Made by a program: the position numbers and the translations under genes. From the IMG/VR virus record IMGVR_UViG_3300028920_000026, positions 128,001 to 190,723 of that record: 62,723 nucleotides of DNA; one strand, given 5' to 3'. The notes under the pieces are model-generated. The model was not told the origin of the DNA, did no database searches, and saw only the letters and a list, made by a program, of their open reading frames with translations. Of this stretch, positions 5,922 through 52,409 are shown in pieces (within the stretch, counting starts at the first letter, position 1; each line of letters opens with the position of its first letter). The DNA is from a virus.

Positions 5922-7159
5922 TAGAACTCCTTCGTCGTCCAGGGCGTGTAGCTCCAGTTTGCGATTGTGTGCTGCAGCGTCTCGTCCCAGCTTGTGACCA
6001 TCTGTTCGATCCTGTAGTCCCGGATGCAGTGTTCCCTGCACTTTTCGCCGAGCGCACGACGTTCGTCTGCACCGAATTCGTACATCTTCATGATCGCATC
6101 AGTGAACGTCTTGTTGCTGACAAAGTCCTCGTAGATGTACGGAATCATCTGGTTTCCAACACAACATCTGACCTCTGGATCGAGCGCGATTCCGTAGTTA
6201 AACCCATCGATGTGGTCCTCAACCTGTCTGCCAAGTCCACCAGTCTTGATCGCGATCGCTGGCGTACCTGCGAGCTTTCCTTCAAGGATCGGTAAACCGA
6301 AGCCTTCGTTGCACGATCTGTTCAGCTGTACGTCAGCGATGTTGTAGATGACATTCATCATGTCAAAGCCGATCCTGTCCTTCGAATAGGTGACGTTGTC
6401 CTTCACGCCCATCTTGTCTGTCACCTGGAACAGGTCGGAACCTTCCTTGTCTTTGGGATCGGTGTGAAGCAGCAACGTTGCCTTTCGATGACCATGATTC
6501 CTTTCAAGTTCATCGAGGAAGTCCTTCCACGATACGATGATGTCATTGACCATCTTACGACGAGCGTTCCTGCCGACGTACAGGGCGATGAAGTGATCCT
6601 CTCGTTCCTTGCCAAGCAGGTTGCGCTTGTGCATCTTGATGTCCTCTTCCGAGAGCGGCTTGTAGAGCTCTGACGGAACGGCATGAGGAACGTAGTGGGT
6701 GCGTTCTGGGAACCATGAACGCACCATCTCGTACGTTGGATAGTTGATGCAGTTGATCAGGTCGGTGCTTTCGTACAGCACACGGTTGAATTCTGGGCGT
6801 GGGTCATTGTCCCACAGGTGATTGTAGACGATGGGACAGATCTGGTGGATCTCGTCTTCCATCTCCCAGACCCACATGAAGAACCTCGGATCCGTGAACA
6901 GGAACAGCGCATCAGGCTTTTCTGAAACGAGTACCTGGCGCAGCATGTTCGGATTTCCGAACCCGTCGGTCGGCTTGATGATGAAGTCATCGTTCACGAC
7001 AACGGTTCTGTAGTCATCGTGTTTGATTGCCGCTCCGAAGCATCGAAACGAATAACGGCCTGTCTTCAACAGACCGTCGATCAACCACCTCGCCTGCGTA
7101 CCCACGCCGCTCGTAGAGAGAGGGTGGTCAGCCAACATCACGATCTTGGACTTTGGCAT
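5921..7159 (-). CDS. Glycosyltransferase, GT4/GT1 family
   Basis: The motif NEGFGLPILEGKLAGTPAIAIKTGG (E-x7-E) is present. The protein is 412 aa. Confidence 0.65.
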   Translation of the reverse strand: MPKSKIVMLADHPLSTSGVGTQARWLIDGLLKTGRYSFRCFGAAIKHDDYRTVVVNDDFIIKPTDGFGNPNMLRQVLVSEKPDALFLFTDPRFFMWVWEMEDEIHQICPIVYNHLWDNDPRPEFNRVLYESTDLINCINYPTYEMVRSWFPERTHYVPHAVPSELYKPLSEEDIKMHKRNLLGKEREDHFIALYVGRNARRKMVNDIIVSWKDFLDELERNHGHRKATLLLHTDPKDKEGSDLFQVTDKMGVKDNVTYSKDRIGFDMMNVIYNIADVQLNRSCNEGFGLPILEGKLAGTPAIAIKTGGLGRQVEDHIDGFNYGIALDPEVRCCVGNQMIPYIYEDFVSNKTFTDAIMKMYEFGADERRALGEKCREHCIRDYRIEQMVTSWDETLQHTIANWSYTPWTTKEF

Positions 7160-7243
7160 ACTATCTGCGTTCTCCTGGGCTCTCAGGACAGATAGTAACC
7201 ACTCAGCGTGAATGTTTTTATCTTGAGGAAGGAATTCTGCCGT

Positions 7244-8167
7244 TTATATCTGTCTGTAGATGGAATCGCAGTGCTCGGTCCCAAAATAATCGCACCACTT
7301 GCAACCCGTCCTGTCCTTGATTGCAATACCGCGGTGGAGCGTGACAAGCATATCTTTGACGAGTTTGCCAGCTCGTTCCGACGTAATGTCACCGACTGAG
7401 ACCGGGAAGAAATCACACAGCGTTCCAGGCTTTCCTTCCCTTTTTAGGATGACAAACGCACACCTGACGTCCTTGAAGTTTGCACCTGTCTTCTGACACC
7501 AGAAGCGTTTGTAGAGGATGAGCTGGTTCTTGGTCATCACGTCCTGCTTCTTTTCCTTGAACCAACCACGCGTCGAAGTCTTCCAATCGATGAGCCACGT
7601 AAGCCGCTTCTTGCCGCGCTTGTCAAGGCACGTGATCACACCATCGATGAAGCCTTTAAACGCGTGTTCGAAGCCCTCGACCTGCTCGTAGAGCTGGTGT
7701 TCAGCCTCAACGAACTCCCAGTTCGGAAAGTTGTCATCCATGAACGCAGGTATCTCTGCGAGGATTGCTCGAGCCTGCTTCTTCCACGTTTCCCGCCCCT
7801 GTACAATGACTCTACCACGAGGCGTCTTGATGTCAACCTTTGAGAACGATTGTTTCCATTTCTCGAGGTCATCACCCGAGAGGACGTCCGATGGTGGGTT
7901 TGCTCGCATCTTGTCCCACATTTTGTCGATCATGTCAGTCGCAATCTCGACCTTCATCTTGCGCGTTTCGAGGAAGTCCTGCAGCGCAGCGTGAATGGCT
8001 GTTCCAAACAGTGCATGGACGTTTTGAACATACTTGTCGAGCTTGTCGATCTGGGCAAGCTTGTGTGCCCAGGTACATCCAAACCACATCGAGAGTTCAG
8101 AAAACGAGACGTGAGGTTTTCCAGTCGGAAGATTCACAAGGTTCAGCTTTACCTTCTTTTTTGTCAT
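7244..8167 (-). CDS. Cas4/RecB-family PD-(D/E)xK exonuclease with a 4-Cys Fe-S signature
   Basis: Motifs FKGFIDGV ... LIDWKTS ... QLILYKRFW (D, D-x-K, QxxxY) are present. The cysteines are one N-terminal Cys (FGCTW) and the C-terminal CKWCDYFGTEHC. The start was trimmed to the ATG at 8165-8167 because the first 26 codons of the track ORF are simply the reverse translation of the tRNA gene. Confidence 0.55.
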   Translation of the reverse strand: MTKKKVKLNLVNLPTGKPHVSFSELSMWFGCTWAHKLAQIDKLDKYVQNVHALFGTAIHAALQDFLETRKMKVEIATDMIDKMWDKMRANPPSDVLSGDDLEKWKQSFSKVDIKTPRGRVIVQGRETWKKQARAILAEIPAFMDDNFPNWEFVEAEHQLYEQVEGFEHAFKGFIDGVITCLDKRGKKRLTWLIDWKTSTRGWFKEKKQDVMTKNQLILYKRFWCQKTGANFKDVRCAFVILKREGKPGTLCDFFPVSVGDITSERAGKLVKDMLVTLHRGIAIKDRTGCKWCDYFGTEHCDSIYRQI

Positions 8168-8184: not shown

Positions 8185-8259
8185 CGCCTCCAGAGGGATT
8201 CGAACCCTCGACATTTCCGCGTTTTAAAGACGCGTGCTCTACCACTGAGCTACAGAGGC
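8185..8259 (-). tRNA. tRNA with anticodon 5'-UUA-3' (would decode UAA; ochre-suppressor-type), class I, no encoded CCA
   Basis: The minus-strand read is GCCTCTG-TA-GCTC-AGTGGTA-GAGC-A-CGCGT-CTTTAAA-ACGCG-GAAATGTC-GAGGG-TTCGAAT-CCCTC-TGGAGGC-G. The anticodon stem (CGCGT/ACGCG) is a perfect 5 bp and the loop is 7 nt (C32 U33 UUA A37 A38). The canonical D-arm has G18G19, and the T-loop is TTCGAAT. The acceptor stem has two G-U pairs. The variable region is 8 nt, which is slightly atypical. Confidence 0.6.
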
Positions 8260-8739
8260 GAAATGTTTCTGATAAAAGCGTTTTGAATTGATACTTCTGT
8301 GTGTTTGCCCCTTACCGATGTTTTTGCCCTTGTATGTGTCAGTTTGAGCATGACAATTTGGACAAATAAGACGTAGATTTTCTTTCTTATTGTTTGTGAT
8401 GTTACCATCAATGTGATCAATTTCAATGAGAATTAAACGTGACATCCATGTTGTATTTTTGCATATTTCGCACAAATGACCACGTTCTTTTATGAGACGT
8501 CTTTTTCTCGCAGCATCGGAACGCAACTCATCAAATGATTTTTGATGAGTTGCAATGTTATGAGAAATCAACGCACCCTTTGATTCAAACCTTAAGCCAC
8601 AAATTCTACATTGATGATTTGAACGTCTATATTCTTTGCGTTTTGGAATTTCTCCCTTTCGAACATGACCCGAAATGTGACCAGTAAGTTGTTCTTTTGA
8701 AGAACACTCTTGACCACAATGATGACATTTTAAGATCAT
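8239..8739 (-). CDS. HNH homing endonuclease with N-terminal C2H2-type zinc fingers
   Basis: The HNH core is EIDHIDGNITNNKKENLRLICPNCH. There are two CxxC...HxxxH fingers (CHHCGQ...H, CRICGL...H). The last 7 codons and the TAG stop lie inside the 5' end of the tRNA gene. Confidence 0.7.
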   Translation of the reverse strand: MILKCHHCGQECSSKEQLTGHISGHVRKGEIPKRKEYRRSNHQCRICGLRFESKGALISHNIATHQKSFDELRSDAARKRRLIKERGHLCEICKNTTWMSRLILIEIDHIDGNITNNKKENLRLICPNCHAQTDTYKGKNIGKGQTHRSINSKRFYQKHFASVAQW

Positions 8740-11981: not shown

Positions 11982-12250
11982 TTCAAAACAACCTTCTTGA
12001 GAAGAATCCTCAACTTTTCAAAAATGCCCGCCTTGACGTCTGGAACTGTTCCACTTGAGAGCTTATCGCCTGAAGCTTCACCGGTAAGGCGGGCAAAGAC
12101 CTTTTCGAAGTTTTTGGAGTGACATTCCTCTGAGCAGAACCAAAGAGAACGTCCACGTCCACCTACCCAACAATTCTCATGTGGTCCAGTGATGAGCCTG
12201 CTGATGGAAAAATGTTTACCACAACCATTACACGGAAGATCATCAGTCAT
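11963..12250 (-). CDS. Small zinc-ribbon protein
   Basis: An internal ATG at 12248-12250 abuts the stop of the dehydrogenase gene. The protein carries CNGCGKH...C..EEC. Confidence 0.3.
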   Translation of the reverse strand: MTDDLPCNGCGKHFSISRLITGPHENCWVGGRGRSLWFCSEECHSKNFEKVFARLTGEASGDKLSSGTVPDVKAGIFEKLRILLKKVVLKWRRRT

Positions 12251-13226
12251 CTGAAACTGCGCGCCCAACCAGAAGTTCCCAGTCACGGTGTTCGGGAGGT
12301 CGAACCTCAAGGTTCTTCTTCATTGCGCCTTCAATAACGACAGGTTCTACACCGACCTGCCGCGCTACGTATGCAAGCGCGTTCATGTCCTTCGGGAAGC
12401 AGTGTCCCCCAAAGCCTCGAACATGCTTGCCGTCAACGACAACGGGACCAGGTACCGCCCAGTGCGAACCTCCGATGCGTTGATCGTACTTAACGTATTC
12501 AACGACCTTGTCGTAGTCAACGTTCAGGCCAAGCTTGTCAAGCGCGGTACAGATGTCGTACATCTCGTTTGCGAACGAGACCTTCGTGGCGAGAAAGCAG
12601 TTGATCGTGTACTTCACGAGCTCGGCCGTCGTCGAAGACGTCTTGATGATCGGAACCTTTGGGTACGCTGCTTGATACGTAAGCTTGACGTCATTGATCC
12701 AAGGACGCGGTCCACCGAGGATGATGCGTGTCTGGTTCAGAAAATCATCAATTGCATTCGCTTCAGTGAGAAATTCAGGATTGAAGATCACATGCAATCC
12801 GTATTTGTTGAACATCTCGTTCCAACGTTCCGTAGAACCAGGAGGACACGTTGATTTGACAACGGCAATGCGTTCACCGTCTACGCTTGCAAGCTCTTCA
12901 AGCACGGACTCAACGATGCGCGTATCTGCTGAACCATCCTTGCGCATCGGAGTAGGAACACCGACAAAGTAGATGCGAGTAAAGTCGATCTTTTCGTCGT
13001 TTTCGATCTTCTTGACAAACTCAGGTAGAGGCTTCACCTCATCGAAGCGCGGAACACCTTTTTTGTATGTCAAGGCGCCATTGATGATCTTGCCTCGGCG
13101 GCGTGGGTCAGCAACTTTTCCCGCCTTATCATAAGCATACACGTCAAATGCATGGCACATACCGACAGAAAGAGACCCACCCACAAAACCCTGTCCAATA
13201 CAGGCAATTGCTCGTTTGTTATTCAT
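12243..13226 (-). CDS. Nucleotide-sugar 6-dehydrogenase (UDP-glucose/GDP-mannose dehydrogenase family)
   Basis: The N-terminus has a Rossmann motif, IACIGQGFVGGS. NPEFLTEANAIDDFLNQTRIILGG matches NPEFLREG...DRIV.G. GFGGHCFPKD matches the catalytic-Cys motif GFGGSCFPKD. Confidence 0.65.
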   Translation of the reverse strand: MNNKRAIACIGQGFVGGSLSVGMCHAFDVYAYDKAGKVADPRRRGKIINGALTYKKGVPRFDEVKPLPEFVKKIENDEKIDFTRIYFVGVPTPMRKDGSADTRIVESVLEELASVDGERIAVVKSTCPPGSTERWNEMFNKYGLHVIFNPEFLTEANAIDDFLNQTRIILGGPRPWINDVKLTYQAAYPKVPIIKTSSTTAELVKYTINCFLATKVSFANEMYDICTALDKLGLNVDYDKVVEYVKYDQRIGGSHWAVPGPVVVDGKHVRGFGGHCFPKDMNALAYVARQVGVEPVVIEGAMKKNLEVRPPEHRDWELLVGRAVSDD

Positions 13227-13921
13227 ATCCTTGCATCCTTATGATTGAGTTCATGTAAAAACTCTCTGTAACCTTGGGTGGTTAACTCATCTTGAGTTAA
13301 CCAATTTAATTCGTAGTTGTTTTGAATACAAAATGTTTGAAGTGCTGATTTTTTCACACCAGCCTTAACATCATATCCTTTGACTTCTTCAATGATTTTT
13401 TGCTTTTTTGATAACCTTACAATCAAAAAGTCAGGAACATAATGTTTTGTCGATCCTTCAAACTCATACGCAATGCTAATTCCGTGTCGTTTTGTCCATG
13501 AAATAACATCATTATCATGATCAAGCTGATGCATACGAAACAGTTCAAGCGCGGAATCAGCATAAAACACTTCATTCATCTTTGTAGATTTGTACGTGCT
13601 CTTTCTACTATGAACAAAGTTATTCTTTATCCTTCCAGACGCGATCCCTTCTGATCTTTTCTTCGACATTACCTGTCGCGTTTCATCGGAATGTTGCTTT
13701 CCAAAGAAGGGATTATTCTCAGCGCTTTGGTTCCTATCAATTGTGCTTTTACCGATTATTTTTCGAGTCTCTTTGGTATGCTTCTTACCAAAGAAAGGAT
13801 TACCTGGTCCTTTATGAAGACAAGATCTGCAGACACGCTTGTATTTTTCAGCGTTGTGCATTGTTGCAGATGTTTTGTAACAAATCCTCTTATTACACTT
13901 TGGGCACAATCTTTCAAACAC
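13223..13921 (-). CDS. Homing-endonuclease-like protein: zinc ribbon + two NUMOD3 motifs + C-terminal PD-(D/E)xK nuclease domain
   Basis: The N-terminus has CPKCN...CRSC. Two NUMOD3-type repeats are present (NPFFGKKHTKETRKIIGKS and NPFFGKQHSDETRQVMSKK). The C-terminal ...ISWTKRHGISIAYEFE...YVPDFLIV...EEVKG is a paralog of the C-termini of the 45507, 49048 and 52421 ORFs. An ATGA overlap joins it to the dehydrogenase gene. Confidence 0.55.
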   Translation of the reverse strand: MFERLCPKCNKRICYKTSATMHNAEKYKRVCRSCLHKGPGNPFFGKKHTKETRKIIGKSTIDRNQSAENNPFFGKQHSDETRQVMSKKRSEGIASGRIKNNFVHSRKSTYKSTKMNEVFYADSALELFRMHQLDHDNDVISWTKRHGISIAYEFEGSTKHYVPDFLIVRLSKKQKIIEEVKGYDVKAGVKKSALQTFCIQNNYELNWLTQDELTTQGYREFLHELNHKDARI

Positions 13922-20938: not shown

Positions 20939-21876
20939 TCGTCTATCTCCGAAACAGGTCCCTCGACCATGACCTTGCTCTGTGGGTACTTTAGCGGGTC
21001 TCCAGAACTGTCGAGAGGAAGTTCCCAACCCGCTGGAAACGCGACCATTCCGAACGACACAGGGTGCGAAAGCTGCATCAACAGATCCCATGTGTCGTTT
21101 ACGAGTGGATTGTAAACAAGGCGTTCGCCATTTACAGCACCCTGGTAGTACCCGTAGCGCTTGCCGCCTCTCATGAATGCGTATCCACCTCGAGGATCGT
21201 TCCAGATCGGGAGGAAGATAGGAACATGGTGTGTTGCTGAGATTGGTGTATGTTCGTTGTGATAGTCGATCTGTTTTTTGACAGCCTGGTCGTACCAATC
21301 CTCAGAACGTCCCCAGTACTCCTGCGTCTGGGGCCAGTTTGTCGGGTATGGTCCGAGTTCATCGAACACGTTTGTCTTGAAGAACCCCATCGTGTGGAAG
21401 TGGTCGTCGGTGTACCTCCAGAACCTGTGTCCTGCGAACGATGCTTCGTCCTTGACAACCTTTGATTTGAGCGTTGAACACCTGACTCCGTTCGCAGTCA
21501 AACACATGTATGGGCTCTGTCGGAGCGCCTTGGCATACTGTTCGATCGCACCAGTGGGTCCGATGTACTGTAGGTCGTCCTGCAAGAACAGAATGATGTC
21601 GTGTTTTGCACGTTCGATGATGATGTTCTTTGCGATGTATTCGTCGTTCGTCCAGTTCGATTCACCGTACGCACCGCGAACGATTGCCTCATTAATCCAC
21701 ACACGTTTACATTCATATATGTGTTTGTGTAGGACTTGGTGAACCAGCTGTTCTGTTGAGCAGTTGTCGACGATGACGACCTGATGCATTCCACAAATTA
21801 CTTCGTCGCGAAGCGATTCAAGCAGGACGTCTAAGTACTTGCCCCTGTTGAAGCTCGTGATGCCGATCGTGATCAT
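20935..21876 (-). CDS. Glycosyltransferase family 2-like
   Basis: MITIGITSFNRGKYLDVLLESL is a GT2-type N-terminus, and VDNCS is an acidic motif. The start was trimmed to the ATG at 21874-21876, which overlaps the stop of the upstream GT. Confidence 0.5.
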   Translation of the reverse strand: MITIGITSFNRGKYLDVLLESLRDEVICGMHQVVIVDNCSTEQLVHQVLHKHIYECKRVWINEAIVRGAYGESNWTNDEYIAKNIIIERAKHDIILFLQDDLQYIGPTGAIEQYAKALRQSPYMCLTANGVRCSTLKSKVVKDEASFAGHRFWRYTDDHFHTMGFFKTNVFDELGPYPTNWPQTQEYWGRSEDWYDQAVKKQIDYHNEHTPISATHHVPIFLPIWNDPRGGYAFMRGGKRYGYYQGAVNGERLVYNPLVNDTWDLLMQLSHPVSFGMVAFPAGWELPLDSSGDPLKYPQSKVMVEGPVSEIDE

Positions 21877-23819
21877 CTCATGAGTTCCGGTTGGCTCATC
21901 TCTATCTTGATGTGAGGTAGGCACTGACCTTCCCACTTTCTATGGAAGATCCACCCACCAGTCTCTGTGGCGAGTGCCTTTGCCTTTTTAGCAATCATCT
22001 CGTCAGTCACTTCTGACCACGGAACGTCAAAGAAGTTGTTGTTTTCTGCAGTGTCTTCAACCGATTTGTTGAAAAGCGCGTTCCAGTGGTTCTGCCAATA
22101 GTCACGGTACAGCTTGATCTTGCGTTCGATGTCGTACCAGCTGTAGTGGAACACGCCAGGGAGATCTTGCAGGATCTTGTTTAGAAGGCCTTCGTACTGA
22201 CCTTTTGCGGTTGGATCACTGAAAAGTACAGCTCTTCGCAACTTCTCGAAGTCTTGGGTCCAAAAGTTTAGGTGTGGAATCGGATCGCCTGTTTCTGTAT
22301 GGATCATATCGCATCCGTCGGTTCCTTCAAGGGCATACAACTCGCCGCTATCGTCATACATTCGAAGTTGCTTTGGAATTCCGTGCGTGATGTACGGTTT
22401 GTTTCGTGAAAGGCGCCACTTCCACGGTGTCGCATCAACACGTACCTTGTCAGACCCACCCCAATACTCGACAACAGGTAGACACACGATATCAATGCCC
22501 TTCGTGATCGACCTGCATAGCTCCTTGACCTTCGACGCATGAGATTCGTGTACGACCTCATCGCTGTCCTGCTGCCAACAGAACTCTTGTGTACACATCT
22601 TTCGTGCCTCTGCCTTCTGCACGCCGTCAAAGACCGCGTGGCGAGGATGAGACCAATCACGTTTGATTTGCTTGACATTTACCCTATTGATGATGTTCCC
22701 ATCATTCTGATGAACATGTTCTGCTGCAATGCGCAATAATACTTCCCACGTTCCGTCAGTCGATCCACCGTCAACAACACAGACTTCGTCACAGAACTGA
22801 AGCATTGACCTGATCGATTGCTCGAACGGATATTCTTGGGAAACACAGTTGTATGTTGTCGTGTAACCGGAGATTGTGGGCTCGTACTCGATGAACGCCT
22901 TGATGCAGTTCCAAAACACCCCACGAGCTGCATAGAGGTATTGCTCGATTGACTCAATGTCGTCGGTTGCAAACCATTCTTCGTCCTTGTGTTGAACGTT
23001 TGAATTAAGTTCAAGTTCGCAGCCAAGAAGTTTGGCTTCAATAACCATCCTGGGACACGTGTCGCCTCCTTCAGGGAGGTAGACGAATCCCTTTGCGGTT
23101 GCGAGTTTCTCGAGTACTTCGTTATATGGAACATTCCACAGCTGTTCGTGTTCGTATCCTTTTTTAAGACAGAAATCCCTGGCTGCCTTGGCAGCCTTGA
23201 TCCAACTGGGAGAATTGAGGGTGATCCACTTCTTTCGCTCTTTTCCTGAATGCTTCTCGCGAAGCAGCTTGATGCTCGCGAACGTTGCATCGTCGAAGAC
23301 AGAACTGAGGACTACGTTGTCCTTTTCTTCGAGGAATGGGAAGCGATCGTGATATCGCTTCATCTGGGTTTCAGACATCCAAAAAATTCCCATTGCACCG
23401 TAGTAGAATGCAGATGTCATCTTTCCATGCATCTGGTTTGCGCAGTCGCACGGTACGCCTTCCTGGTGCATATGAAGCTCAGTTGACCTGAACCGACAGA
23501 ACTTGTAGTCGTACTCAAGCACGGCGTACTGCATGTTCCCGACGATGGATGGGATCAACCTGATGTCCATCTGTGTCCAGTTACCGAATATCCAGAACCT
23601 GTCGTGTCCCTTTTGCAGAAGTTCGATCGTGACGTCCTTTGATTTGACTCTAAACACTTTGAACGGGCTGGAGTCTATGAGTGCTTGTGTCGTGAGTTCA
23701 GCTCCACCGACGTATTCATCAACGAACATGTCTGCAACAAAGATGATCTGGACATCGGGTGGGATCTCGTTCTTTGGAGGTTCAGGTACGGCAAATGGGC
23801 TTTCAAATGGTGTGAACAT
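21873..23819 (-). CDS. Large multidomain glycosyltransferase (contains a GT2/GT-A domain)
   Basis: 648 aa. FCDEVCVVDGGSTDGTWEVLLRIAAE is the GT2 (D)DGSTDGT signature. Additional N-terminal domains are uncharacterised. Confidence 0.55.
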   Translation of the reverse strand: MFTPFESPFAVPEPPKNEIPPDVQIIFVADMFVDEYVGGAELTTQALIDSSPFKVFRVKSKDVTIELLQKGHDRFWIFGNWTQMDIRLIPSIVGNMQYAVLEYDYKFCRFRSTELHMHQEGVPCDCANQMHGKMTSAFYYGAMGIFWMSETQMKRYHDRFPFLEEKDNVVLSSVFDDATFASIKLLREKHSGKERKKWITLNSPSWIKAAKAARDFCLKKGYEHEQLWNVPYNEVLEKLATAKGFVYLPEGGDTCPRMVIEAKLLGCELELNSNVQHKDEEWFATDDIESIEQYLYAARGVFWNCIKAFIEYEPTISGYTTTYNCVSQEYPFEQSIRSMLQFCDEVCVVDGGSTDGTWEVLLRIAAEHVHQNDGNIINRVNVKQIKRDWSHPRHAVFDGVQKAEARKMCTQEFCWQQDSDEVVHESHASKVKELCRSITKGIDIVCLPVVEYWGGSDKVRVDATPWKWRLSRNKPYITHGIPKQLRMYDDSGELYALEGTDGCDMIHTETGDPIPHLNFWTQDFEKLRRAVLFSDPTAKGQYEGLLNKILQDLPGVFHYSWYDIERKIKLYRDYWQNHWNALFNKSVEDTAENNNFFDVPWSEVTDEMIAKKAKALATETGGWIFHRKWEGQCLPHIKIEMSQPELMR

Positions 23820-42613: not shown

Positions 42614-43297
42614 ATGATCGTCTATAGTCTGACATCCAGAACCTCCGGAAAGTCGTACGTCGGAAAGACGATCAGGGCGCTTGACCAGCGTTGGCGTGAA
42701 CACGTTTACCATGCCATGAACGATTCTACCGAGATGCCTCTGTATGCCGCGATCAGGAAGTACGGGTCAGACGACTTTACCAAGGAGGTCCTCGCCGAGG
42801 CCGCGTCGGAAGAAGAGCTGAACGAGCTCGAGGTCAGGAATATCGCGGAACTCGGGACGTTCGTCAACGGTTACAACGCGACCCGAGGAGGCGACGGGAT
42901 AAGTGGGTACAGACACACCTCTGAGACAAAGAAGAGGTTTTCTGAGATGAGGAAGGGGTCAGGAAACCACAACTGGGGTGGGTTGAGCGAAGAACATGGG
43001 AGAAATATGGCTCGAGCAAAGGTTGGGATAGGCACGGGTCCAAGGCCACATGCTATGGGATGGCATCACACAAATGAAGCAAAAGAAAAGATCAGTAAAA
43101 ATTCGTCTTCTCAGCCGCGGACCCCAATTTCTGTACGCCAGCTAGATAGTATTGGTCAGGTTCTAGCAACGTATCCTTCTATGAGTCTAGCATCGCAAGC
43201 AGTTGGTGGCCGAGGTCGTGGGATCAAGGCGTGTTGTGAAGGTAGACAAGGGACTTATCTTGGATACCGTTGGGAGTTCGCAAATCCTAAAAGGTGA
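42614..43297 (+). CDS. GIY-YIG homing endonuclease with NUMOD3 DNA-binding repeats
   Basis: MIVYSLTSRTSGKSYVGKT...RWREH...NGYNATRGGDG is a GIY-YIG domain of the I-TevI/Seg type. It is followed by HTSETKKRFSEMRKG... and HTNEAKEKISKNS (NUMOD3-like repeats). Confidence 0.7.
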   Translation: MIVYSLTSRTSGKSYVGKTIRALDQRWREHVYHAMNDSTEMPLYAAIRKYGSDDFTKEVLAEAASEEELNELEVRNIAELGTFVNGYNATRGGDGISGYRHTSETKKRFSEMRKGSGNHNWGGLSEEHGRNMARAKVGIGTGPRPHAMGWHHTNEAKEKISKNSSSQPRTPISVRQLDSIGQVLATYPSMSLASQAVGGRGRGIKACCEGRQGTYLGYRWEFANPKR

Positions 43298-44214: not shown

Positions 44215-45456
44215 ATGGCAACCTTTAAAGAAATCCTCCCGTCAGACATCAAGACCGCTAGGTCGTTTCTTAACCAACTGATCGATGTTCTGCAAGAGGA
44301 CATTAGCGCGTCTGTTTCACGTAGGAAGTACCAAGTCTTCGTCACCGGTGGCGTCGGTCCGGGCGTCACCAGCTCTCTGTACCAGACAGTCTATGATCAG
44401 GACTTCACGCTCCAGACGGCAAACCCGATCTTTGATGTGACGTTCGGATTACGTCCTGATGGCGATACAGTAGCAACGTCTCAGACAGGCACGGACGCAG
44501 CAGGCAAGGAGCTCTTTCCATCGTCATCGCTCATGATGCGAGAGAAGATGGACATCTATAGGCAGTACGCCAAGGCGCTGCTCGGTGATTCGACCGCTGT
44601 CTTTACGAGTCCGTTTGATAGCAACGATGTTGGTGACCAGATTGATGTTCCATTGATGATCTCCTTCAAGCGACTGTTTGCAAGGGATCAGATCAAGCGT
44701 GAAACGTTCGCGATGAAGTTCTATCAGACGGCATCAGCCGTTGGTCCAAACGCCCAAGAGATCCCACCAGATGATGGTGATACGCAGGTCGGATATATTA
44801 CAAACCTAAACAGGACGTCGATCTCTGGATCTGCGATCTATACGGACGTCGGATCGTCAACGAACAAGCTTACGACGTTTGGAGGCCAGGTCGGTAACAT
44901 TGTCGATTCTGCAAATACGTCACGTAACGTCGGCCTGATGTTCTACGACAGGGGTATCGCGGTCTTCGATCTTGAGAAGATCACTTCTGCGAGTCAGTTC
45001 ATGTCAGGTGTCATCGACGGGATGACGCCTTCGGGCCTGCAGGTGCTCGGCGGTGCAAGCACCCCGACGTCTGGAACCGCAAAGTTTGTTCCTGACTTTG
45101 TCGTCTCAGCGAGCATCGACAATGTCATCGATCACGTGTGTTCAGCTAGGTTCCAGTCGGGTTCAAACACCGCGCTTACGTTTCAGAACGTTACAAACAT
45201 CAACTCGACGCTCATCTTCTGCAGGACGTCGGCAGACGAGTTCAACTATTCGGCGAATCCAACGTTCGTTGACAACGATAACAGGATTGTTGTCATCGAT
45301 CAAGGCCAAGAAGATACACAGCAGTCGTTCACCTTTGTGACGTCTGTCGGTCTGTATGACGCAAACGACAACCTGCTCGCTGTTGCAAAGCTTTCGCGAC
45401 CCGTTGAAAAGTCGCCCGAGAGAGACTTTACCCTAAGAGTTCGACTTGACTTTTAG
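44215..45456 (+). CDS. Hypothetical structural protein (413 aa) sharing a C-terminal domain with the 845-aa protein
   Basis: The C-terminus, FVTSVGLYDANDNLLAVAKLSRPVEKSPERDFTLRVRLDF, is clearly homologous to the C-terminus of the 46497-49034 ORF, FVYITGINFHDDNMNVVMKAQLAQPITKRFRDKLAFKVKIDF. Confidence 0.4.
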   Translation: MATFKEILPSDIKTARSFLNQLIDVLQEDISASVSRRKYQVFVTGGVGPGVTSSLYQTVYDQDFTLQTANPIFDVTFGLRPDGDTVATSQTGTDAAGKELFPSSSLMMREKMDIYRQYAKALLGDSTAVFTSPFDSNDVGDQIDVPLMISFKRLFARDQIKRETFAMKFYQTASAVGPNAQEIPPDDGDTQVGYITNLNRTSISGSAIYTDVGSSTNKLTTFGGQVGNIVDSANTSRNVGLMFYDRGIAVFDLEKITSASQFMSGVIDGMTPSGLQVLGGASTPTSGTAKFVPDFVVSASIDNVIDHVCSARFQSGSNTALTFQNVTNINSTLIFCRTSADEFNYSANPTFVDNDNRIVVIDQGQEDTQQSFTFVTSVGLYDANDNLLAVAKLSRPVEKSPERDFTLRVRLDF

Positions 45457-45506: not shown

Positions 45507-46478
45507 ATGCCGATGTACGGTTACGTATGCAAGAAGTGTGGTACAGAATTTCAATCGCCTAAGAAAGGTAAGAAGTACTGTTCACATGAGTGTTTCGCTC
45601 ACCGCTTTGATCCTGTGACGAAGACGTGCGAGACCTGTGGATGTGAATTCACGGTCGCGTATAGGTTTAGAGGTCAGAAGACGTGTGGTAAGGAGTGTGC
45701 AAAGTCGGTGATCTCAAAGACGTTGAACGCGCGTGAGGTGAAACAGTGCCTTGCGTGTGGGAAGGACTTTGAGGTTGTGCAATCGTACAAGGACGATGCA
45801 AAGTACTGTTCGTACGAGTGTTTTCTCTCGACTCGAGCAACTCGTCAGCCAAATGTAACAAAGGTCTGTGAGTATTGTGATCAGGAATTTGTTGTTCCGT
45901 TTGTGAAGAATAACAGGCGATTCTGTAACAAGAGCTGTGCAAACAGCGGTGAAAATAATGGGTCTTTTGGACTAACTGGATCTTTACATCCAACATCAAA
46001 TGTTTCAAGTTGGAATAAAGGTAAGACAAAGTACGATGATTCTCGGTTACGAATGCTAGGCGAAAAGATATCAACGATCATAGCTGATAAGATCGTTAGT
46101 GGAACATGGTCACCGCCTTCTACGGGATTCAAAGGCGAACACTACACCGGCATAAAGAACGGTGGTGAAGAGGTTTACCTACGTTCATCGTTTGAAAGTG
46201 CTGTTGCTCGAAGTCTAGACGAGGACGATGATGTTGTATCGTGGGTTCACGAACCGTTCAGGCTTCCGTACATGTTCGATGGTAGCATTCACAATTACGT
46301 ACCTGATTTTCTTGTTTTCTTTAGAGATTGTACCGAACTGTGGGAAGTCAAACCAAAGATGTTGACTGAAACTGTGCAGAATATCGCTAAACGTGAGGTT
46401 GCTACTGCATGGTGTACTTCAAACAAGACAACATATAGAGATGTTACAGAAGATGACATTGGCTTGCTGTCATGTTAG
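45507..46478 (+). CDS. Homing-endonuclease-like protein: five tandem zinc-ribbon repeats + C-terminal PD-(D/E)xK nuclease domain
   Basis: The repeats have the form C..CG..F.......YCS.EC (CKKCGTEF...YCSHECF; CETCGCEF...CGKECA; CLACGKDF...YCSYECF; CEYCDQEF...FCNKSCA). The C-terminal VVSWVHEPFRLPY...YVPDFLVFF...ELWEVKP is paralogous to the 13223, 49048 and 52421 ORFs. Confidence 0.5.
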   Translation: MPMYGYVCKKCGTEFQSPKKGKKYCSHECFAHRFDPVTKTCETCGCEFTVAYRFRGQKTCGKECAKSVISKTLNAREVKQCLACGKDFEVVQSYKDDAKYCSYECFLSTRATRQPNVTKVCEYCDQEFVVPFVKNNRRFCNKSCANSGENNGSFGLTGSLHPTSNVSSWNKGKTKYDDSRLRMLGEKISTIIADKIVSGTWSPPSTGFKGEHYTGIKNGGEEVYLRSSFESAVARSLDEDDDVVSWVHEPFRLPYMFDGSIHNYVPDFLVFFRDCTELWEVKPKMLTETVQNIAKREVATAWCTSNKTTYRDVTEDDIGLLSC

Positions 46479-46496
46479 AAGGGATACTTACACGAG

Positions 46497-49034
46497 ATGG
46501 CAATCGTCACGCTGACAAAGGATGACTTCGACTCATATTCGGTGCTGACGACTCCGACGCGCTACTTTAGGTCGAGTTCGCTTGGCGGTGTGACAGGGTC
46601 AGTCTACGTCTATGCGAGGCACTCTGACGTTGAGAAGGAACTTGCACCGCTCGATGCGTTTAGGGACGCGACACACGATGACTCTGACATAGCGGCGTTG
46701 GTGAAGCAGATCCAAACGTTCGGTCGCTTTATCATGAAGAACCCAACGTATCCTGAGCAGTGGAGACCTGCGTTCAACGCGGCGCTCGAAACGTACCTTA
46801 CAAAGGTGAACGAGCTGGGTACGTCAGCGCGCAAGTTCAAGGCAATGGAGGTAAACAGGTTCGTGCCTGGGACAAGGTGGTCTCAGAACATGAGCAGGAA
46901 GCTAACTGTCAAGAACACGCTTAACAAGTACTACAGGGTTCTCTATCCGAGCGCGCAGTGGGCGTTTACGAACTATAACAGCCTGAACTTCTTTTCATCA
47001 TCCCAAGTTCCGAATTCGTCGGCGCTCATCTACCCGATGAGGTCAGCTCCTGCTGAACATACCGGATACGCGACAGGATCGTACATTCCGAGTGGCGCAT
47101 TTTCGCTTGATTTCTACATTAATCCGAGGTACAAGTCGTTCGAGGGAGACGCCGGTCCTGTCATCGTCCCTGGGACGATCATGCATGTTCCTGATGTGTT
47201 TGCGGTCTCGATGATTACGGGTTCGCTCCGTGATGAGCGTAGCCGTGTCGATTCCTGGCGCCTTATGCTACAGGTAAAACACTCGACAAATATCAATCCG
47301 TCGATGGCGCAGACGAACGTCGGTGGAAATTATCCGTATGACATGATCTTCATGTCTGATAACAACGTGTTTCGTCACAATAGGTGGTACCATGTCGTCG
47401 TCAGGTGGGGGACTGATGCTGTGAACAATGGTACTGGTTCGTTTAATATTGACGGTGTCGATAGGGGTAAGTTTGTCATTCCGTCGGGAACGATCGCACT
47501 CGAACTTCCGGCGTCTGGTTGGCAGGAACCGGCAGCACTGTTTATCGGCAACTACTTTGAACCTTTTGATGGCGCGATCGACAATCAGGCATTGACGTTC
47601 TTTGGTACCGACACCGCGCTTCGAGAGGGGTTGGACGAGCTCGATGATGTCCTGAATCAGAACGAACCGAATGACTATCAGATGAGGTTTCCGCTCGTTG
47701 CTGAGATGCATGATGTTGCGATCAAGCGTCACTATATGGACGATGTTGATATTGCGGCGTCCGCGTCTGTTGGTCCGATGGCGATCGATTCGGGAAGCAA
47801 GGGAATCGCGTTCTATCTTCCACCGTTCTTCGTTCAGGAATCTTCATTTAGACAGTACGTTACTGACCGTGGAGGGATTCTACAGACACCGTTCTTTGAG
47901 ATCGACGGTACGACAGACGATCCGTTCAACGTGGCGATGGCATTTGGTGTCAACGGCCATTACATGAACCTTGAGAACTATGTTCGAGACTTTGCATCAG
48001 ACAACAACCCAAGGCTTCATCAGTTGTCGGGAACGGCGATCTCGTACACGACTCAGGCACGTGAGGCCAACGAGTTTCTATACGATGATCCGTATGTTCG
48101 AAAGCGAAATTTGACAATCCTGCCGTGCGACGATGGAAACTTCAGGCCGAGCTACGAGCTTCTCATGTCAGAGAGCCTGAATACGAAGTTTGTAAATGAC
48201 CTTGGATACGAGGATCACAGCCTTGTAAGCCTAGACAACCTGCTGCTTGATCAGTCGCTTATATTCGGTACAGATTTTGATTCGATCAATGGAGATGATT
48301 CAAAGTCGGATGATAAGGTTGAGGCGTTCGTAAACGAGCAGATCGGTTTTACGCCTGAACAACCTGGTATCTCTCCGGGAGCTGCGTTTAACACATACAT
48401 CAGGGCGATCAACGATTCGATCGCGTCTGGCAACTATGGAGCAGGCGTCCAGGCAGGTGCTCCGCTGACGATCTTCAACAGGACACGTGATTCCAGCAGC
48501 AATCAGGTCACGTTCTTCGACTTCAGCAACCTGTTCTACGGCGATCGCATCGTGCCAGGGACGTTTACGATCAAGGATCCGTCTATCACGGGTTCTGGCG
48601 GACACGTTTCGCTGACGTTGAAGGATGATGGTTTCGGAAACCTCTACAGGGCAGACTGCCAGACGAGCGCATCAACGTGGTGCAACGTCGGTAACATCTA
48701 CTACAACGAGGGCATTGTCGTCGTCAAGAATCCGAGTGCGTACTTCTTTGGCAAAGAAGAGTACGAGATGTCGTTCAAGGGTGAACGTCGAGTCCACGTT
48801 TTGAACGTGAACGTTGTAGTTGGAAAGAACGAATTCAACTCATCATCCAATCCAAACTGGATGCCTGTCTCTGCGTCAGCATCAACAACAGACCCAGACC
48901 AGGACTTTGTCTATATCACAGGTATCAACTTCCATGATGACAACATGAACGTTGTTATGAAGGCACAGCTAGCACAACCGATCACGAAGAGGTTTAGGGA
49001 TAAGCTTGCGTTCAAGGTGAAAATCGATTTTTAG
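46497..49034 (+). CDS. Large hypothetical structural protein (845 aa)
   Basis: Long ORF. Its C-terminal about 40 aa are homologous to the C-terminus of the 44215-45456 ORF. Confidence 0.4.
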   Translation: MAIVTLTKDDFDSYSVLTTPTRYFRSSSLGGVTGSVYVYARHSDVEKELAPLDAFRDATHDDSDIAALVKQIQTFGRFIMKNPTYPEQWRPAFNAALETYLTKVNELGTSARKFKAMEVNRFVPGTRWSQNMSRKLTVKNTLNKYYRVLYPSAQWAFTNYNSLNFFSSSQVPNSSALIYPMRSAPAEHTGYATGSYIPSGAFSLDFYINPRYKSFEGDAGPVIVPGTIMHVPDVFAVSMITGSLRDERSRVDSWRLMLQVKHSTNINPSMAQTNVGGNYPYDMIFMSDNNVFRHNRWYHVVVRWGTDAVNNGTGSFNIDGVDRGKFVIPSGTIALELPASGWQEPAALFIGNYFEPFDGAIDNQALTFFGTDTALREGLDELDDVLNQNEPNDYQMRFPLVAEMHDVAIKRHYMDDVDIAASASVGPMAIDSGSKGIAFYLPPFFVQESSFRQYVTDRGGILQTPFFEIDGTTDDPFNVAMAFGVNGHYMNLENYVRDFASDNNPRLHQLSGTAISYTTQAREANEFLYDDPYVRKRNLTILPCDDGNFRPSYELLMSESLNTKFVNDLGYEDHSLVSLDNLLLDQSLIFGTDFDSINGDDSKSDDKVEAFVNEQIGFTPEQPGISPGAAFNTYIRAINDSIASGNYGAGVQAGAPLTIFNRTRDSSSNQVTFFDFSNLFYGDRIVPGTFTIKDPSITGSGGHVSLTLKDDGFGNLYRADCQTSASTWCNVGNIYYNEGIVVVKNPSAYFFGKEEYEMSFKGERRVHVLNVNVVVGKNEFNSSSNPNWMPVSASASTTDPDQDFVYITGINFHDDNMNVVMKAQLAQPITKRFRDKLAFKVKIDF

Positions 49035-49047
49035 GATTGCCAATGCT

Positions 49048-50055
49048 ATGAGGGTGATGTATAATTCCCTCATGCTCATCGAGATCAAGGAACTTCCTCG
49101 TTCCAAACCTGGAGCTCGTGGTCTTCCACCTCGAATCTGCATCCTTAAATGTGATATCTGTGGAAAGACGTACGAAAAGAAGTATGCTAAATCTCAGGTC
49201 AAAGCCAAGATTCATCGTTGTTCATTGAAGTGTGCATATGCTGCTCGCGGTCCCGGATCTCGCGGCGGTGAAGTTGTAGTCAGAAACTGTGCTCACTGTG
49301 GTAAAGAACTTCCACTGATGACAAAGGGAAGCATCTCTAGCGAGCATAGCTTCTGTGGTAAATCATGCTACGCAAAGTGGCGGTCAGAACATCCAGAAGT
49401 CTATGCTGCAAATACCGCCGCGATGCATACGCCTGAAGTAGCTACAAAGATATCGCAGAGGGTTCAAGAACGTATGCAGCAACCTGGTTATGTTCATCCT
49501 ATGCAGGGTAAACATCATACTCAAGAGACGAAGGATGCGATCTCGCGGCATCATAGAGATACAGGTTGTCTCAATGGCGAGAAGAACGGGATGTTTGGAC
49601 GTAGGCATACGAAGCAAGCGCGTGAGAAAATGTCAAACGCCGTATCACGCCGCATTATTGAAGGACGAATGATTGCGTATGGTTCTAAATGGAATGTGCA
49701 TGGACATTTTTATGCAAAGAAATGTTCAAATTACGATGAATGTTTCTATCGATCTAGCTGGGAACTTAAGTTCATGCAGTGGCTCGATGCGAATGATGCA
49801 GTTGAATCGTGGGAATATGAATCGGTTCGTATTCCGTACTGCTACAACGAACACAAACGTTGGTACGTTCCTGACTTTCTCGTGACGTATATCGATGGGA
49901 CACGTAGGATGTACGAGATCAAACCTGCTGAGTTTGTTTCTACGGAACGTGCCGTGTTGAAGGAAGCCGCTGGTAGGAAGTTTTGTGTTGAGAATAACAT
50001 ATATGAATATGTTGTGTTGACAGGAGATTCATTGTGCCAGATGGAAGTTACTTAG
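49048..50055 (+). CDS. Homing-endonuclease-like protein: zinc ribbons + NUMOD3-like repeats + PD-(D/E)xK nuclease domain
   Basis: Zinc-ribbon segments are CDICGK...CSLKCA and CAHCGK...CGKSC. The repeats are HTPEVATKISQR, HHTQETKDAISRHH and RHTKQAREKMSNAVS. The C-terminal RSSWELKFMQWLD...ESWEYE...YVPDFLVTY...YEIKP is paralogous. Confidence 0.5.
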   Translation: MRVMYNSLMLIEIKELPRSKPGARGLPPRICILKCDICGKTYEKKYAKSQVKAKIHRCSLKCAYAARGPGSRGGEVVVRNCAHCGKELPLMTKGSISSEHSFCGKSCYAKWRSEHPEVYAANTAAMHTPEVATKISQRVQERMQQPGYVHPMQGKHHTQETKDAISRHHRDTGCLNGEKNGMFGRRHTKQAREKMSNAVSRRIIEGRMIAYGSKWNVHGHFYAKKCSNYDECFYRSSWELKFMQWLDANDAVESWEYESVRIPYCYNEHKRWYVPDFLVTYIDGTRRMYEIKPAEFVSTERAVLKEAAGRKFCVENNIYEYVVLTGDSLCQMEVT

Positions 50056-50065
50056 TTTAAGAGAA

Positions 50066-51220
50066 ATGTCGTTTCTTCTTCGTAGTTTTGTTAAAAATGT
50101 TCTACTACAGGAACGTCGTAGGGATGACCTTGCTAAATTAAGTGAGTTAGCAGGTGATCGTAACCTGTTCATAACGTTCCGTAATCATTTAACTTTAAAT
50201 ACGAACGTCAGTACACAGTACGCAACACCTCTTGGATTGTACGCATATCCATTGACGGTTGATATTGTTCGTCAACTGAAAAATGATGAGTTACCATTTG
50301 CAACAGAGATGAAGTACGTTGTGTTGTTTGAATGTACTTCACCACAATCATTGCTAAAGCTGCAACACATCAATTCGATAGATGATGCACTTGATGTATT
50401 TTCAAGAGTTGCAACTGATATTGAAATCGATGATGTTCGTGTTGATCTTGAAGCGTCCGGTAAGAATCCAGCGGAGGGGCTTTGGGCGTTGTTGTACTCG
50501 TACGCAAACATGCGAAGAGGAAAATATCGCTTCAACAAAGTGACATCAACGTTTTTTGACAAGTTTAGTGTGTCATATGACTTGACATCAGGTCACGGTC
50601 GTTCTGTTACAACTTTGCTAAAGCGTGCAGGTTATTCTGGGATTGTTGATTACGGTGATGGAATCATTCATCACAATGAACCCACGCAGGCTGTGTTCTT
50701 TAATGTTCCGGATTTGAAGATTGTTGAAGCGTTTGACAATCCTCTCATTGTTGGGCGTGAATTTATAAAGAACGATAGTGTTAATGTACGTAGCTTTGAA
50801 ACATTGATCTCTCAATTGAAGAATCAATCAAAAGGTATCATCGTAAGAACGTTCAAGACAATGAACGTAATTGGGTTGTTGTCAGATCCATCTAAGATCT
50901 ACCAAATAAATTGGAAAAAGATCAGCCCTGCTATAACGCAGCTTCTTCTAAATCATCCTGAGGTGCTTGATATTGACGGCACGATGGATCGATTATTGCT
51001 TGGGTTCGATATTGATAGGTTACCAGATCTCGTCAAAAGAAAGTTCATGAGCTTTAACGTAATAACAGATATGCTTGCGCAGCAAGGTCAATTGTTAAGT
51101 GCCCAACAGGCGTTGCGTTTGTATGATGCAGCTGGCAATAAAAAGAAGGAACTTATTGTTCGCTACATTGATAAGCTGTGTTATGAACCTGATGAATTCG
51201 ATAAGATGATGAGCAAATGA
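50066..51220 (+). CDS. Hypothetical protein (384 aa)
   Basis: ORF only. An ATGA overlap joins it to the next gene. Confidence 0.35.
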   Translation: MSFLLRSFVKNVLLQERRRDDLAKLSELAGDRNLFITFRNHLTLNTNVSTQYATPLGLYAYPLTVDIVRQLKNDELPFATEMKYVVLFECTSPQSLLKLQHINSIDDALDVFSRVATDIEIDDVRVDLEASGKNPAEGLWALLYSYANMRRGKYRFNKVTSTFFDKFSVSYDLTSGHGRSVTTLLKRAGYSGIVDYGDGIIHHNEPTQAVFFNVPDLKIVEAFDNPLIVGREFIKNDSVNVRSFETLISQLKNQSKGIIVRTFKTMNVIGLLSDPSKIYQINWKKISPAITQLLLNHPEVLDIDGTMDRLLLGFDIDRLPDLVKRKFMSFNVITDMLAQQGQLLSAQQALRLYDAAGNKKKELIVRYIDKLCYEPDEFDKMMSK

Positions 51221-51792
51221 GCAAAAATCCCATTGTAGATGCATGCAAGTTCTGTATGTTTGCACATGATTTTGATGTTGGTGATTCAAGGTTTTTACCA
51301 AACATCGATCAGATGTTCGTGATCAACAGGTATTTCTATCGTCCGGAAGCTGCGATCTTCAAAAAGAAGCGCCGTGTTGGGATGTCAACGTTGTTTATGT
51401 TGCTAGCGATGTATGAATGTATAAACGGAGCAAGGGTCCATGTTTATGCATCGACACCACAGATGGCTGCGTACAATGCTAGGATGTTTGAAGCGTTTGT
51501 GTCGACAACGTGTTTATCGCAGTCATTTGGAAGGGCGTTGACGACAAAGTCGTTTTCAAACGGCGCATTTATCGATTTTAAGGTCGCAACAGTACCAAAC
51601 CTACGTGGTGTTTGTGGAGACGTAGCGTTCATTGACGAGGCGCAGTCCCTTAGGGAAGAGTGCTTCATTAAGGAAGCCCTGAAGAATCGTGTAGCAAACA
51701 ATATATCCGTGTCATGGACAATTGATGATCAAGGCAACACGATTCCTGTGCCCGATAAATACGCTCAGCTCGTATGCAGCCTTACAGAGTAA
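51217..51792 (+). CDS. Terminase large subunit ATPase-domain paralog (191 aa, lacks the nuclease domain)
   Basis: KRRVGMSTLFMLLAMYE...VHVYASTPQMAAYNARMF...GAFIDFKVATVPNLRGVCGDVAFIDEAQSL aligns with the authentic TerL at 59163, SRQLGLSTVAAAYAVWL...ILVIATKLQTATNF...GSQIKAIPTSEDAGRSEALSLLIVDEAAFI. These are the Walker A-like, coupling and Walker B segments. Confidence 0.45.
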   Translation: MSKNPIVDACKFCMFAHDFDVGDSRFLPNIDQMFVINRYFYRPEAAIFKKKRRVGMSTLFMLLAMYECINGARVHVYASTPQMAAYNARMFEAFVSTTCLSQSFGRALTTKSFSNGAFIDFKVATVPNLRGVCGDVAFIDEAQSLREECFIKEALKNRVANNISVSWTIDDQGNTIPVPDKYAQLVCSLTE

Positions 51793-51818: not shown

Positions 51819-52409
51819 TCAATGACGTTTAGAACCCATCGGAAGGTTTCGCTTGTCACTTGCATTCCAGGGTGTCTTACCACCTATCGCACCGGGTCCA
51901 GTTCCCAATCCCAATCCACCGCTGCTAAAGCCAGTTCCGCCTCCGCCCATGCCTGCGAATGGGCTTGTACCGTGAGCAGCTGACATTGCACCTCTGAAGT
52001 GTCTTTGTGGTTGGCGCCCCTGGAATGAAAGACCCCAGCCGATGAGTTCCTGCTTGACGCTTTTGATAAGTGCTTGGCTCGGCAACGCTCCTTCGACGCC
52101 TCGTTTGTTGAAGTCGATGTTTCTTGCGAGTGCCTGAAGCTCTGCTGTTGAGTACGAGTCCTCATCGTTGTCCATTTTGTACTCGACAAACGTCGCAACG
52201 TCATTGAACTCAGGCATCTCCATGAGCTCGAGTACGTCCTCTTCGAATGCTAGGTCTCCTGATGCCTGTGTCTGCCTGATGCTCCCGCCACGTTTGATAC
52301 GATCATCGTGTTTTGCTGCGTCTTCCTCAGCGGTACGAGATCGTTCACCGTACCAAGGCTGGCTCTCAATAATGGCCTCAATGAATTCACGAAGTAGGTC
52401 GACGCTCAT
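51819..52409 (-). CDS. Hypothetical acidic protein with a Gly-rich C-terminal tail (196 aa)
   Basis: This is the only minus-strand ORF in this part of the plus block. Its C-terminus is GMGGGGTGFSSGGLGLGTGPGAIGG. Confidence 0.35.
   Translation of the reverse strand: MSVDLLREFIEAIIESQPWYGERSRTAEEDAAKHDDRIKRGGSIRQTQASGDLAFEEDVLELMEMPEFNDVATFVEYKMDNDEDSYSTAELQALARNIDFNKRGVEGALPSQALIKSVKQELIGWGLSFQGRQPQRHFRGAMSAAHGTSPFAGMGGGGTGFSSGGLGLGTGPGAIGGKTPWNASDKRNLPMGSKRH

Follow-up and report, generated by a model that had tools for sequence, protein, structure and literature searches.

The usual classes of homing endonucleases are LAGLIDADG, GIY-YIG, HNH, His-Cys box, I-Ssp6803I-type PD-(D/E)xK and Vsr-like EDxHD. 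Here we consider four genes, called A, B, C and D, that lie in a viral stretch of 62,723 bp (positions 128,001 to 190,723 of IMG/VR record IMGVR_UViG_3300028920_000026; this whole stretch is "the window" in what follows) and end in the same nuclease domain. The reading that we favour, with a probability of roughly 0.7, is a joint one: D corresponds to gp4, the head-completion nuclease of phage T4, and A, B and C are free-standing genes of the homing-endonuclease type.

As regards build, the described systems closest to A, B and C are the GIY-YIG enzymes Seg and I-TevI and the HNH enzymes of the Mob type. These are likewise bipartite, with NUMOD3 and zinc-finger modules, and GIY-YIG and HNH phage endonuclease genes likewise lie between genes, beside conserved ones, with a patchy distribution and several copies per genome. 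The difference is in the catalytic cassette, which in A, B and C is a PD-(D/E)xK nuclease resembling TnsA and gp4, and in its place in the protein: it is C-terminal here, as in the EDxHD family, whereas GIY-YIG enzymes carry it at the N-terminus. I-Ssp6803I and the EDxHD enzymes (I-Bth0305I) are a further parallel, being restriction-endonuclease-like folds put to homing. EDxHD enzymes combine an N-terminal DNA-binding region with a C-terminal nuclease and are found between the halves of split inteins (PMC2677866, PMC3239194). Membership in either family was considered. The motif of the four genes is a canonical E...PD...ExK rather than EDxHD with its histidine base, and Pfam gave no match of A–D to the I-Ssp6803I family.

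The second set of relatives consists of virion enzymes. A prediction of 2005 made T4 gp4 a PD-(D/E)xK enzyme of the TnsA/EndoI kind (PMC1189080), and a virion-associated TnsA-like nuclease is typical of the group-2 (T4-like) jumbo phages (PMC7824862). According to Benler 2020, as cited in PMC7824862, T4 gp4 is a non-specific DNase needed for packaging and morphogenesis. The fold and gp4 were therefore already known; what seems not to have been described is a cassette of this type in genes that resemble homing endonucleases. The 2012 catalogue of PD-(D/E)xK enzymes lists PF08722, the Pfam family concerned, only as "transposase", and names only Vsr-like and I-Ssp6803I among homing endonucleases (PMC3424549). 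A TnsA-like cassette goes unmentioned in a survey of such genes in phages published in 2023 (PMC10448857), and our search found no paper describing one with TnsA/PF08722, which is weak evidence, given that most subscription journals lay outside that search. Databases do already label such fusions, as "endonuclease" (PHROG 15427) or "TnsA-like endonuclease N terminal/NUMOD3 motif" (JGI).

The shared nuclease domain and gene D

The four genes, with amino acid (aa) positions of their parts, are as follows.

13223–13921, minus strand: gene A, 232 aa, homing-endonuclease-like; one Cys4 zinc ribbon, two NUMOD3 units, TnsA/gp4-like nuclease; catalytic tetrad E126/D164/E179/K181
45507–46478, plus strand: gene B, 323 aa; four tandem zinc ribbons (aa 8–144), a degenerate NUMOD3-like unit, nuclease (aa 216–323); tetrad E230/D267/E280/K282
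49048–50055, plus strand: gene C, 335 aa; two zinc ribbons (aa 35–107), two NUMOD3 units (about aa 147–200), nuclease (aa 223–334); tetrad E239/D276/E290/K292
52421–52828, plus strand: gene D, 135 aa, stand-alone TnsA-like nuclease; gp4 ortholog, a core gene; tetrad E37/D77/E91/K93

An earlier note, made from the sequence of this DNA, had described four open reading frames (ORFs) sharing a C-terminal domain with the D and ExK hallmarks of PD-(D/E)xK nucleases. All four are present, and the E...PD...ExK tetrad is intact in each. The C-terminal ~105 aa match PF08722 (Tn7_TnsA-like_N), with E-values of 3e-5 for A, 1e-11 for B, 3e-10 for C and 1.5e-14 for D, and a six-frame scan of the window with a hidden Markov model (HMM) returned exactly these four copies and no fifth. 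When the domains are compared with one another by BLASTP, E-values run from 1e-11 to 1e-24, the exception being A–D (0.03). Identity is highest for C–D (44%, E 1e-24), followed by B–C (36%), A–C (33%), B–D (32%), A–B (29%) and A–D (24%). At 24–44% identity the paralogs are old, which excludes the recent duplications that the note had named as a possible objection.

What kind of nuclease is this? AlphaFold models were made from family alignments, and their predicted local distance difference test (pLDDT) values are 92.7 for D and 84.5 for C, with the nuclease domain of C above 93. Structurally, the catalytic domain matches Tn7 TnsA best (Foldseek E 4e-6 for the C model), and a profile search of PDB sequences returned weak matches only, to T7-type endonuclease I and to TnsA. 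The models thus describe the shared domain as a predicted canonical PD-(D/E)xK nuclease, of the same type as TnsA and T7 endonuclease I (EndoI). Two narrower assignments were rejected: T7 endonuclease I itself, because PF05367 (Phage_endo_I) scores 15–22.5 bits against a cutoff of 29.1, and the BPTD_3080 restriction enzymes, on score thresholds and context. The suggestion that the family is poorly described does not hold for the domain, which is a known one; it does hold for the part that the domain plays here, as catalytic cassette in genes resembling those of homing endonucleases.

Gene D is an ortholog of the T4 gp4 head-completion nuclease and a vertically inherited core gene. A tblastn search with D matched 1,819 GenBank phage records, and the best matches, 31–34% identical, come from Straboviridae and cyanophages, where the annotation is gp4, head completion or head closure. 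Against RB49 gp4 the figures are 33% identity and E 9e-17, in an alignment described as full-length and end-to-end; it starts only at D residue 30. The best PHROG for D is phrog_218, "head closure" (E 2e-25), and a D homolog (P0080) is called "Straboviridae/Kyanoviridae head completion nuclease" by one source. The four catalytic residues are invariant across 59 D-type sequences, and the D model is a small single domain, a PD-(D/E)xK fold like TnsA and T7 endonuclease I, as in gp4.

Synteny tells the same story. Eight relatives were recovered from IMG/VR (L001–L008) through the neighbouring 845-aa gene at 46497, the marker of the synteny backbone, and seven of them (not L007) have a short D ortholog, 46–54% identical, at the same position, with the 46497 homolog on one side and a RuvC-like gene on the other. 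The further loci L011–L019 all have a short D ortholog at this place; over the closer relatives identity is 46–56%, and it is 39% in L014. In the window, D is followed by a RuvC-like resolvase gene at 53730, a fused SbcCD gene at 55285 and the large terminase gene at 59163. It follows that the idea of each copy as a free-standing insertion stands for A, B and C and falls for D, a syntenic, conserved gp4 ortholog.

The likeness of D to gp4 of Straboviridae, Kyanoviridae and group-2 jumbo phages extends to size, the single domain, the fold, the E/D/ExK residues and its status as a single core gene. One difference is that gp4 of T4-like phages lies next to gp2, whereas D has no adjacent gp2 homolog. 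Gene 52854–53615, just 3' of D, was considered for this role (gp2 is the DNA end protector) and shows no similarity. In L002 its homologs lie at different positions and number two (6810–7430, and 21852–22301 in reverse), and it is a movable or duplicated accessory gene. Functionally, D would be a small enzyme of the TnsA/EndoI type, a PD-(D/E)xK nuclease of one domain that depends on Mg2+ and which, by homology with T4 gp4, would process DNA during or after packaging so that filled heads are completed.

The note had also seen D as a stand-alone nuclease domain behind a basic N-terminus, and so it is. Residues 1–18 (52421–52474) form a poly-basic start that is conserved in the lineage, with the consensus KRKRKRK..YHRG and low model confidence; a role in DNA binding or in capsid targeting is a guess. 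Genes of the gp4 type carry many labels across phage records: "transposase", "Tn7-Tnp-TnsA N domain-containing protein", "Holliday junction resolvase", "head closure" and "hypothetical protein". They should be annotated as the gp4 head-completion nuclease, and not as "transposase", "head closure" or "Holliday junction resolvase".

Genes A, B and C and their sites

Unlike T4 gp4, which has no such modules, A, B and C add 110–220 aa of zinc ribbons and NUMOD3 to the nuclease, and they are dispensable and patchily distributed. That three of the four ORFs carry these modules had been proposed from sequence, and the profiles bear it out. Cys4 zinc-ribbon units number one in A, four in B, two in C and none in D; for NUMOD3 (PF07460), A (7.7e-15) and C (4e-9) give significant matches, and the unit in B is degenerate. 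PHROG 15427, "endonuclease", spans the whole zinc-ribbon/NUMOD3/TnsA-like architecture.

For gene A, the relevant features are these.

13820–13906, minus strand: zinc ribbon CPKC-x21-CRSC of A (aa 6–34); C6, C9 and C34 are near-invariant in family alignment A4
13664–13810, minus strand: two NUMOD3 units of A (about aa 38–86), matching PF07460 in two stretches
13271–13591, minus strand: nuclease domain of A (aa 111–217), with the catalytic tetrad
12243–13226, minus strand: UDP-glucose dehydrogenase gene, the conserved neighbour of A

Homologs beginning MF.R.C back the GTG start of A at 13921, and the stop codon of A overlaps the start of the dehydrogenase gene. No relatives of this locus were found through gene 14589; they were found through the dehydrogenase gene instead. 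Homologs of A, 41–57% identical, lie immediately upstream of that gene in three distinct contigs (L024/L028, L025 and L026), and the homologs P0135 and P0136 occupy the same site. In 11 loci with an equally similar dehydrogenase (57–62%) there is no endonuclease gene at this position; the upstream ORF is a glycosyltransferase in five of them and gives no or weak Pfam matches in the rest. A target site in or beside the dehydrogenase gene is likely. A further observation comes from L034, where a distant TnsA-like ORF of 254 aa (5963–6724; domain HMM E 7e-7, weak Pfam match to DUF7487) lies directly downstream of the dehydrogenase gene, on the side opposite to A. The gene may be a hot spot for such insertions.

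The catalytic tetrad is invariant in 20 A-type sequences, and a full-length profile collects 196 clusters (at 50% identity) at E <= 1e-30 and 3,844 at E <= 1e-10. Bacillus phage Moonbeam (Herelleviridae) has a gene of this type, annotated "endonuclease; contains NUMOD3 domain", and in a neighbour-joining (NJ) tree of the ~105-aa domain the A-type domains cluster with a Bacillus phage endonuclease.

Genes B and C flank a single conserved gene.

46497–49034, plus strand: conserved 845-aa protein, presumed structural, with a weak Laminin_G_3 match only; B lies upstream and C downstream

B fills the spacer between gene 44215–45456 and this gene. The sole other copy found is in L011, in the same spacer and at 64% identity; B was not found at this site in the other distinct relatives examined, including L012, the sister of L011. 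In their last ~90 aa, which end RVRLDF and KVKIDF, the proteins of the two genes bordering the spacer are homologous, and the same sequence (ttttagga) surrounds both stop codons. The two seem to be paralogs and are presumably structural; no PHROG matches either, and Pfam yields only the weak hit already mentioned, for 46497.

C begins at 49048 as annotated here, and the family consensus suggests that its true start is probably Met9, at nucleotide 49072. We found 44 homologs with the same zinc-ribbon/NUMOD3/PF08722 build, in all of which the catalytic tetrad is invariant. In every context examined (L011, L012/13, L014–16 and L017–19) their place is immediately 3' of the 46497 homolog, with gp4 further downstream; C was not found in L001–L008. 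Placed on the tree of gene 46497, C is patchy: it is present in five lineages and absent from at least five, and in a clade with 97% bootstrap support L001, without C, stands beside L011 and L012, with C.

On the 3' side of C, three genes (50066–51220, 51217–51792 and, on the minus strand, 51819–52409) separate it from D. They match no family and gave no tblastn match in the relatives examined, which have a short ORF or nothing between gene 46497 (or the C homolog) and gp4. This looks like a lineage-specific addition of ~2.3 kb beside an endonuclease gene.

The bipartite build of A, B and C and their presence or absence at fixed intergenic sites among relatives agree with the view of them as free-standing insertions. 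For A and C, one part of that view has to be given up, namely that they inserted independently in this genome alone, as homologs hold the same sites in several diverged relatives. Further TnsA-like copies occur at other sites, for example upstream of SbcCD in L005. As for SbcCD itself, the SbcD-like phosphoesterase and the SbcC-like ATPase form one fused gene of 1,056 aa in the window (55285–58455) and in L014 and L017, and two genes in L012 (9414–12649). In L011 (10845–13005) the two genes are parted by a 193-aa ORF containing NUMOD3, perhaps a further instance of a gene broken at the site of a homing endonuclease.

A supporting case comes from cultured phages. The nuclease half of C also matches an extra "endonuclease" gene in some T4-like coliphages. 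In Tequatrovirus PD112 (NC_054928.1; locus L009, 115–2706) the gene of the large terminase, gp17, is divided in two by a gene of 199 aa that encodes a zinc ribbon and a TnsA-like domain; a NUMOD3-like segment can be recognized by eye and is not detected by Pfam. The upstream piece ends IYIDE|CVAKDTKV and the downstream piece reads VESHN|CAFIPNF, which puts the break at IYIDE|CAFIPNF. When the two are conceptually spliced, the junction peptide is 100% identical and contiguous in the best matches listed, all of them intact T4-like terminase genes, and 498 records carry it at 99% identity or more. What is left over corresponds to a split intein with an N part of ~39 aa and a C part of ~107 aa. 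By its sequence, gp17 of PD112 appears to contain a split intein broken by a free-standing endonuclease gene, the "fractured gene" arrangement.

That arrangement was described by Dassa et al. in 2009, including a terminase locus with exactly this unusual split point; the endonucleases they reported in fractured genes were only of the GIY-YIG and Vsr-like kinds (PMC2677866). The PD112 locus mirrors the split-intein arrangement of the EDxHD enzymes. In Shewanella phage Thanatos-2 (MT457553.1; locus L010, 467–3567) the endonuclease is instead fused in frame to the upstream, N-terminal terminase piece. GenBank labels at these gp17 loci are two "terminase large subunit" genes plus an "endonuclease" or "hypothetical protein". 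PD112-type genes thus link the family to an intein in an essential gene, and the placement of a relative of the same build supports the homing reading of A, B and C.

How would such enzymes act? The N-terminal Cys4 zinc ribbons and NUMOD3 helices would bind a specific, extended DNA site, and a flexible linker would tether the C-terminal gp4/TnsA-like catalytic domain, which would cut nearby with Mg2+. If such a phage shared a host cell with a relative without the gene, the cut beside the empty site would be repaired from the genome that carries the gene, and the repair would copy the endonuclease gene and flanking markers into the empty site. Each type has its one site: A upstream of the UDP-glucose dehydrogenase gene, B between genes 44215 and 46497, and C downstream of 46497. 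DNA cleavage, target specificity, any cutting of both strands and homing itself are, in this scheme, predictions from the build and distribution of the genes.

Alternatives and the kinship with gp4

Several points weigh against reading A, B and C as homing genes, beginning with the biochemistry of the cassette. TnsA acts together with a partner and cleaves a single strand, and T7 endonuclease I is a dimer, while A, B and C are envisaged as monomeric fusions. The match of A to PF08722, at 24.9 bits, falls just under the gathering cutoff of 26.5. The identity of C follows that of its flanks, with values for gene 46497, C and D of 51/45/56, 44/37/46 and 39/34/39%; because the divergence of C tracks its flanks, active homing accounts for its distribution no better than prolonged vertical inheritance with repeated losses. 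Finally, the NJ tree of the ~105-aa domain is a deep polytomy that resolves neither branching order nor evolutionary direction.

A first alternative is one that we consider unlikely. Could A, B and especially C be domesticated, sequence-targeted accessory nucleases that serve the phage, by helping gp4 and the terminase or by cutting the genomes of competitors? C always lies beside the gp4 gene and diverges with its flanks, and the invariance of its catalytic residues over 44 diverged homologs implies sustained selection for activity. There is precedent too, in HNH nucleases next to the terminase that act in packaging (PMC10448857). However, at least five related lineages without C keep gp4 and the flanking genes, so that C is dispensable, and A lies in a sugar-metabolism cluster with no link to packaging. 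The NUMOD3/zinc-ribbon build and the split-intein site of a relative are, moreover, hallmarks of homing endonucleases.

A second alternative, which we hold to be very improbable, is that all four genes are plain duplicates of gp4 made within the genome, without mobility, the N-terminal modules having been gained once in this genome. One domain is indeed common to all four, and the C–D identity of 44% exceeds the 31–34% between D and T4-type gp4. The paralogs are nevertheless just 24–44% identical to each other, and other phages, among them Bacillus phage Moonbeam and the T4-like coliphages, hold separate groups of homologs for each type. Presence and absence at fixed sites also vary among relatives, and the NJ tree suggests that the A, B and C types group with homologs from unrelated phage families rather than with D.

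That the four proteins are TnsA-type subunits of a Tn7-like heteromeric transposase can be dismissed: TnsA is the best Pfam and structural match, but there is no TnsB/DDE or TnsC partner among the neighbouring genes and no transposon context, the proteins stop right after the catalytic domain and thus have no TnsA C-terminal, TnsC-binding domain, and the NCBIfam model TnsA_like scores 16–40 bits against a cutoff of 110.

We return, then, to D as gp4 and to A, B and C as homing-endonuclease-type genes, and to the question of how the two are related. Mean domain identity between the D lineage and gp4 of T4 and PA5oct is 33.5%; between the D lineage and the C, B and A types it is 35.3, 32.7 and 27.3%, respectively. 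Judged by these identities, C- and B-type cassettes appear as close to gp4 as gp4 proteins are to one another across phage families, and A more distant. The NJ tree separates D orthologs, C (with B), A, T4-type gp4 and the terminase-associated endonucleases.

A bolder and only tentative proposal is that gp4 and this large, unnamed family of zinc-ribbon/NUMOD3 endonucleases might be evolutionary siblings, the cassette being a further, hitherto unrecognised catalytic class that would be active in cultured coliphages, interrupting their terminase gene within a split intein. Two routes could lead there: domestication may have turned a selfish endonuclease into an enzyme of morphogenesis, or duplicates of gp4 may repeatedly have been fused to DNA-binding modules and given rise to new homing endonucleases. 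In the present lineage, a C-type copy sits beside gp4.

Genomic setting and significance

The window has 48.7% G+C and is phage DNA with dense coding. It is part of a T4-superfamily jumbo phage of ~331 kb, since proteins identical to those encoded here are recorded from a contig of 331,213 bp. Megablast of both regions against GenBank phages gave no match, so the genome is without a close cultured relative. Neither the window nor the loci with a split terminase yielded a group I intron, and the PADLOC models of defence systems gave just a generic "HEase" match, through NUMOD3.

The earlier note had placed the four genes alongside two endonuclease genes of better-known classes, both of which are confirmed.

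42614–43297, plus strand: free-standing homing endonuclease gene, GIY-YIG with NUMOD3
8239–8739, minus strand: endonuclease gene with a C2H2 zinc finger and HNH

Genes of the GIY-YIG type (with NUMOD3) occur at varied intergenic sites in the relatives, including spacers equivalent to those described here. The copy at 42614 shows the same DNA-binding module joined to another nuclease cassette, and the sharing of modules between it and the TnsA-like genes is the classic modular pattern of phage homing endonucleases. At the HNH gene, a tRNA gene (8185–8259, minus strand; Rfam, 63.7 bits) overlaps the last 21 nucleotides of the ORF, an abutment that recalls T4 segB in its tRNA cluster.

What do these genes mean for the biology of large phages? 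The finding points to another cassette, the TnsA/gp4-like PD-(D/E)xK nuclease, deployed in the same modular way as the known ones; 196 or more clusters (at 50% identity) match the full-length A-type profile. Cultured T4-like coliphages such as PD112, HY03 and phiR1-RT allow a direct test of the idea, as they have a family member inside the split intein of the terminase. It would link selfish endonucleases to an essential enzyme of virion maturation, and it bears on how phage nucleases may be domesticated, or lost to selfish elements.

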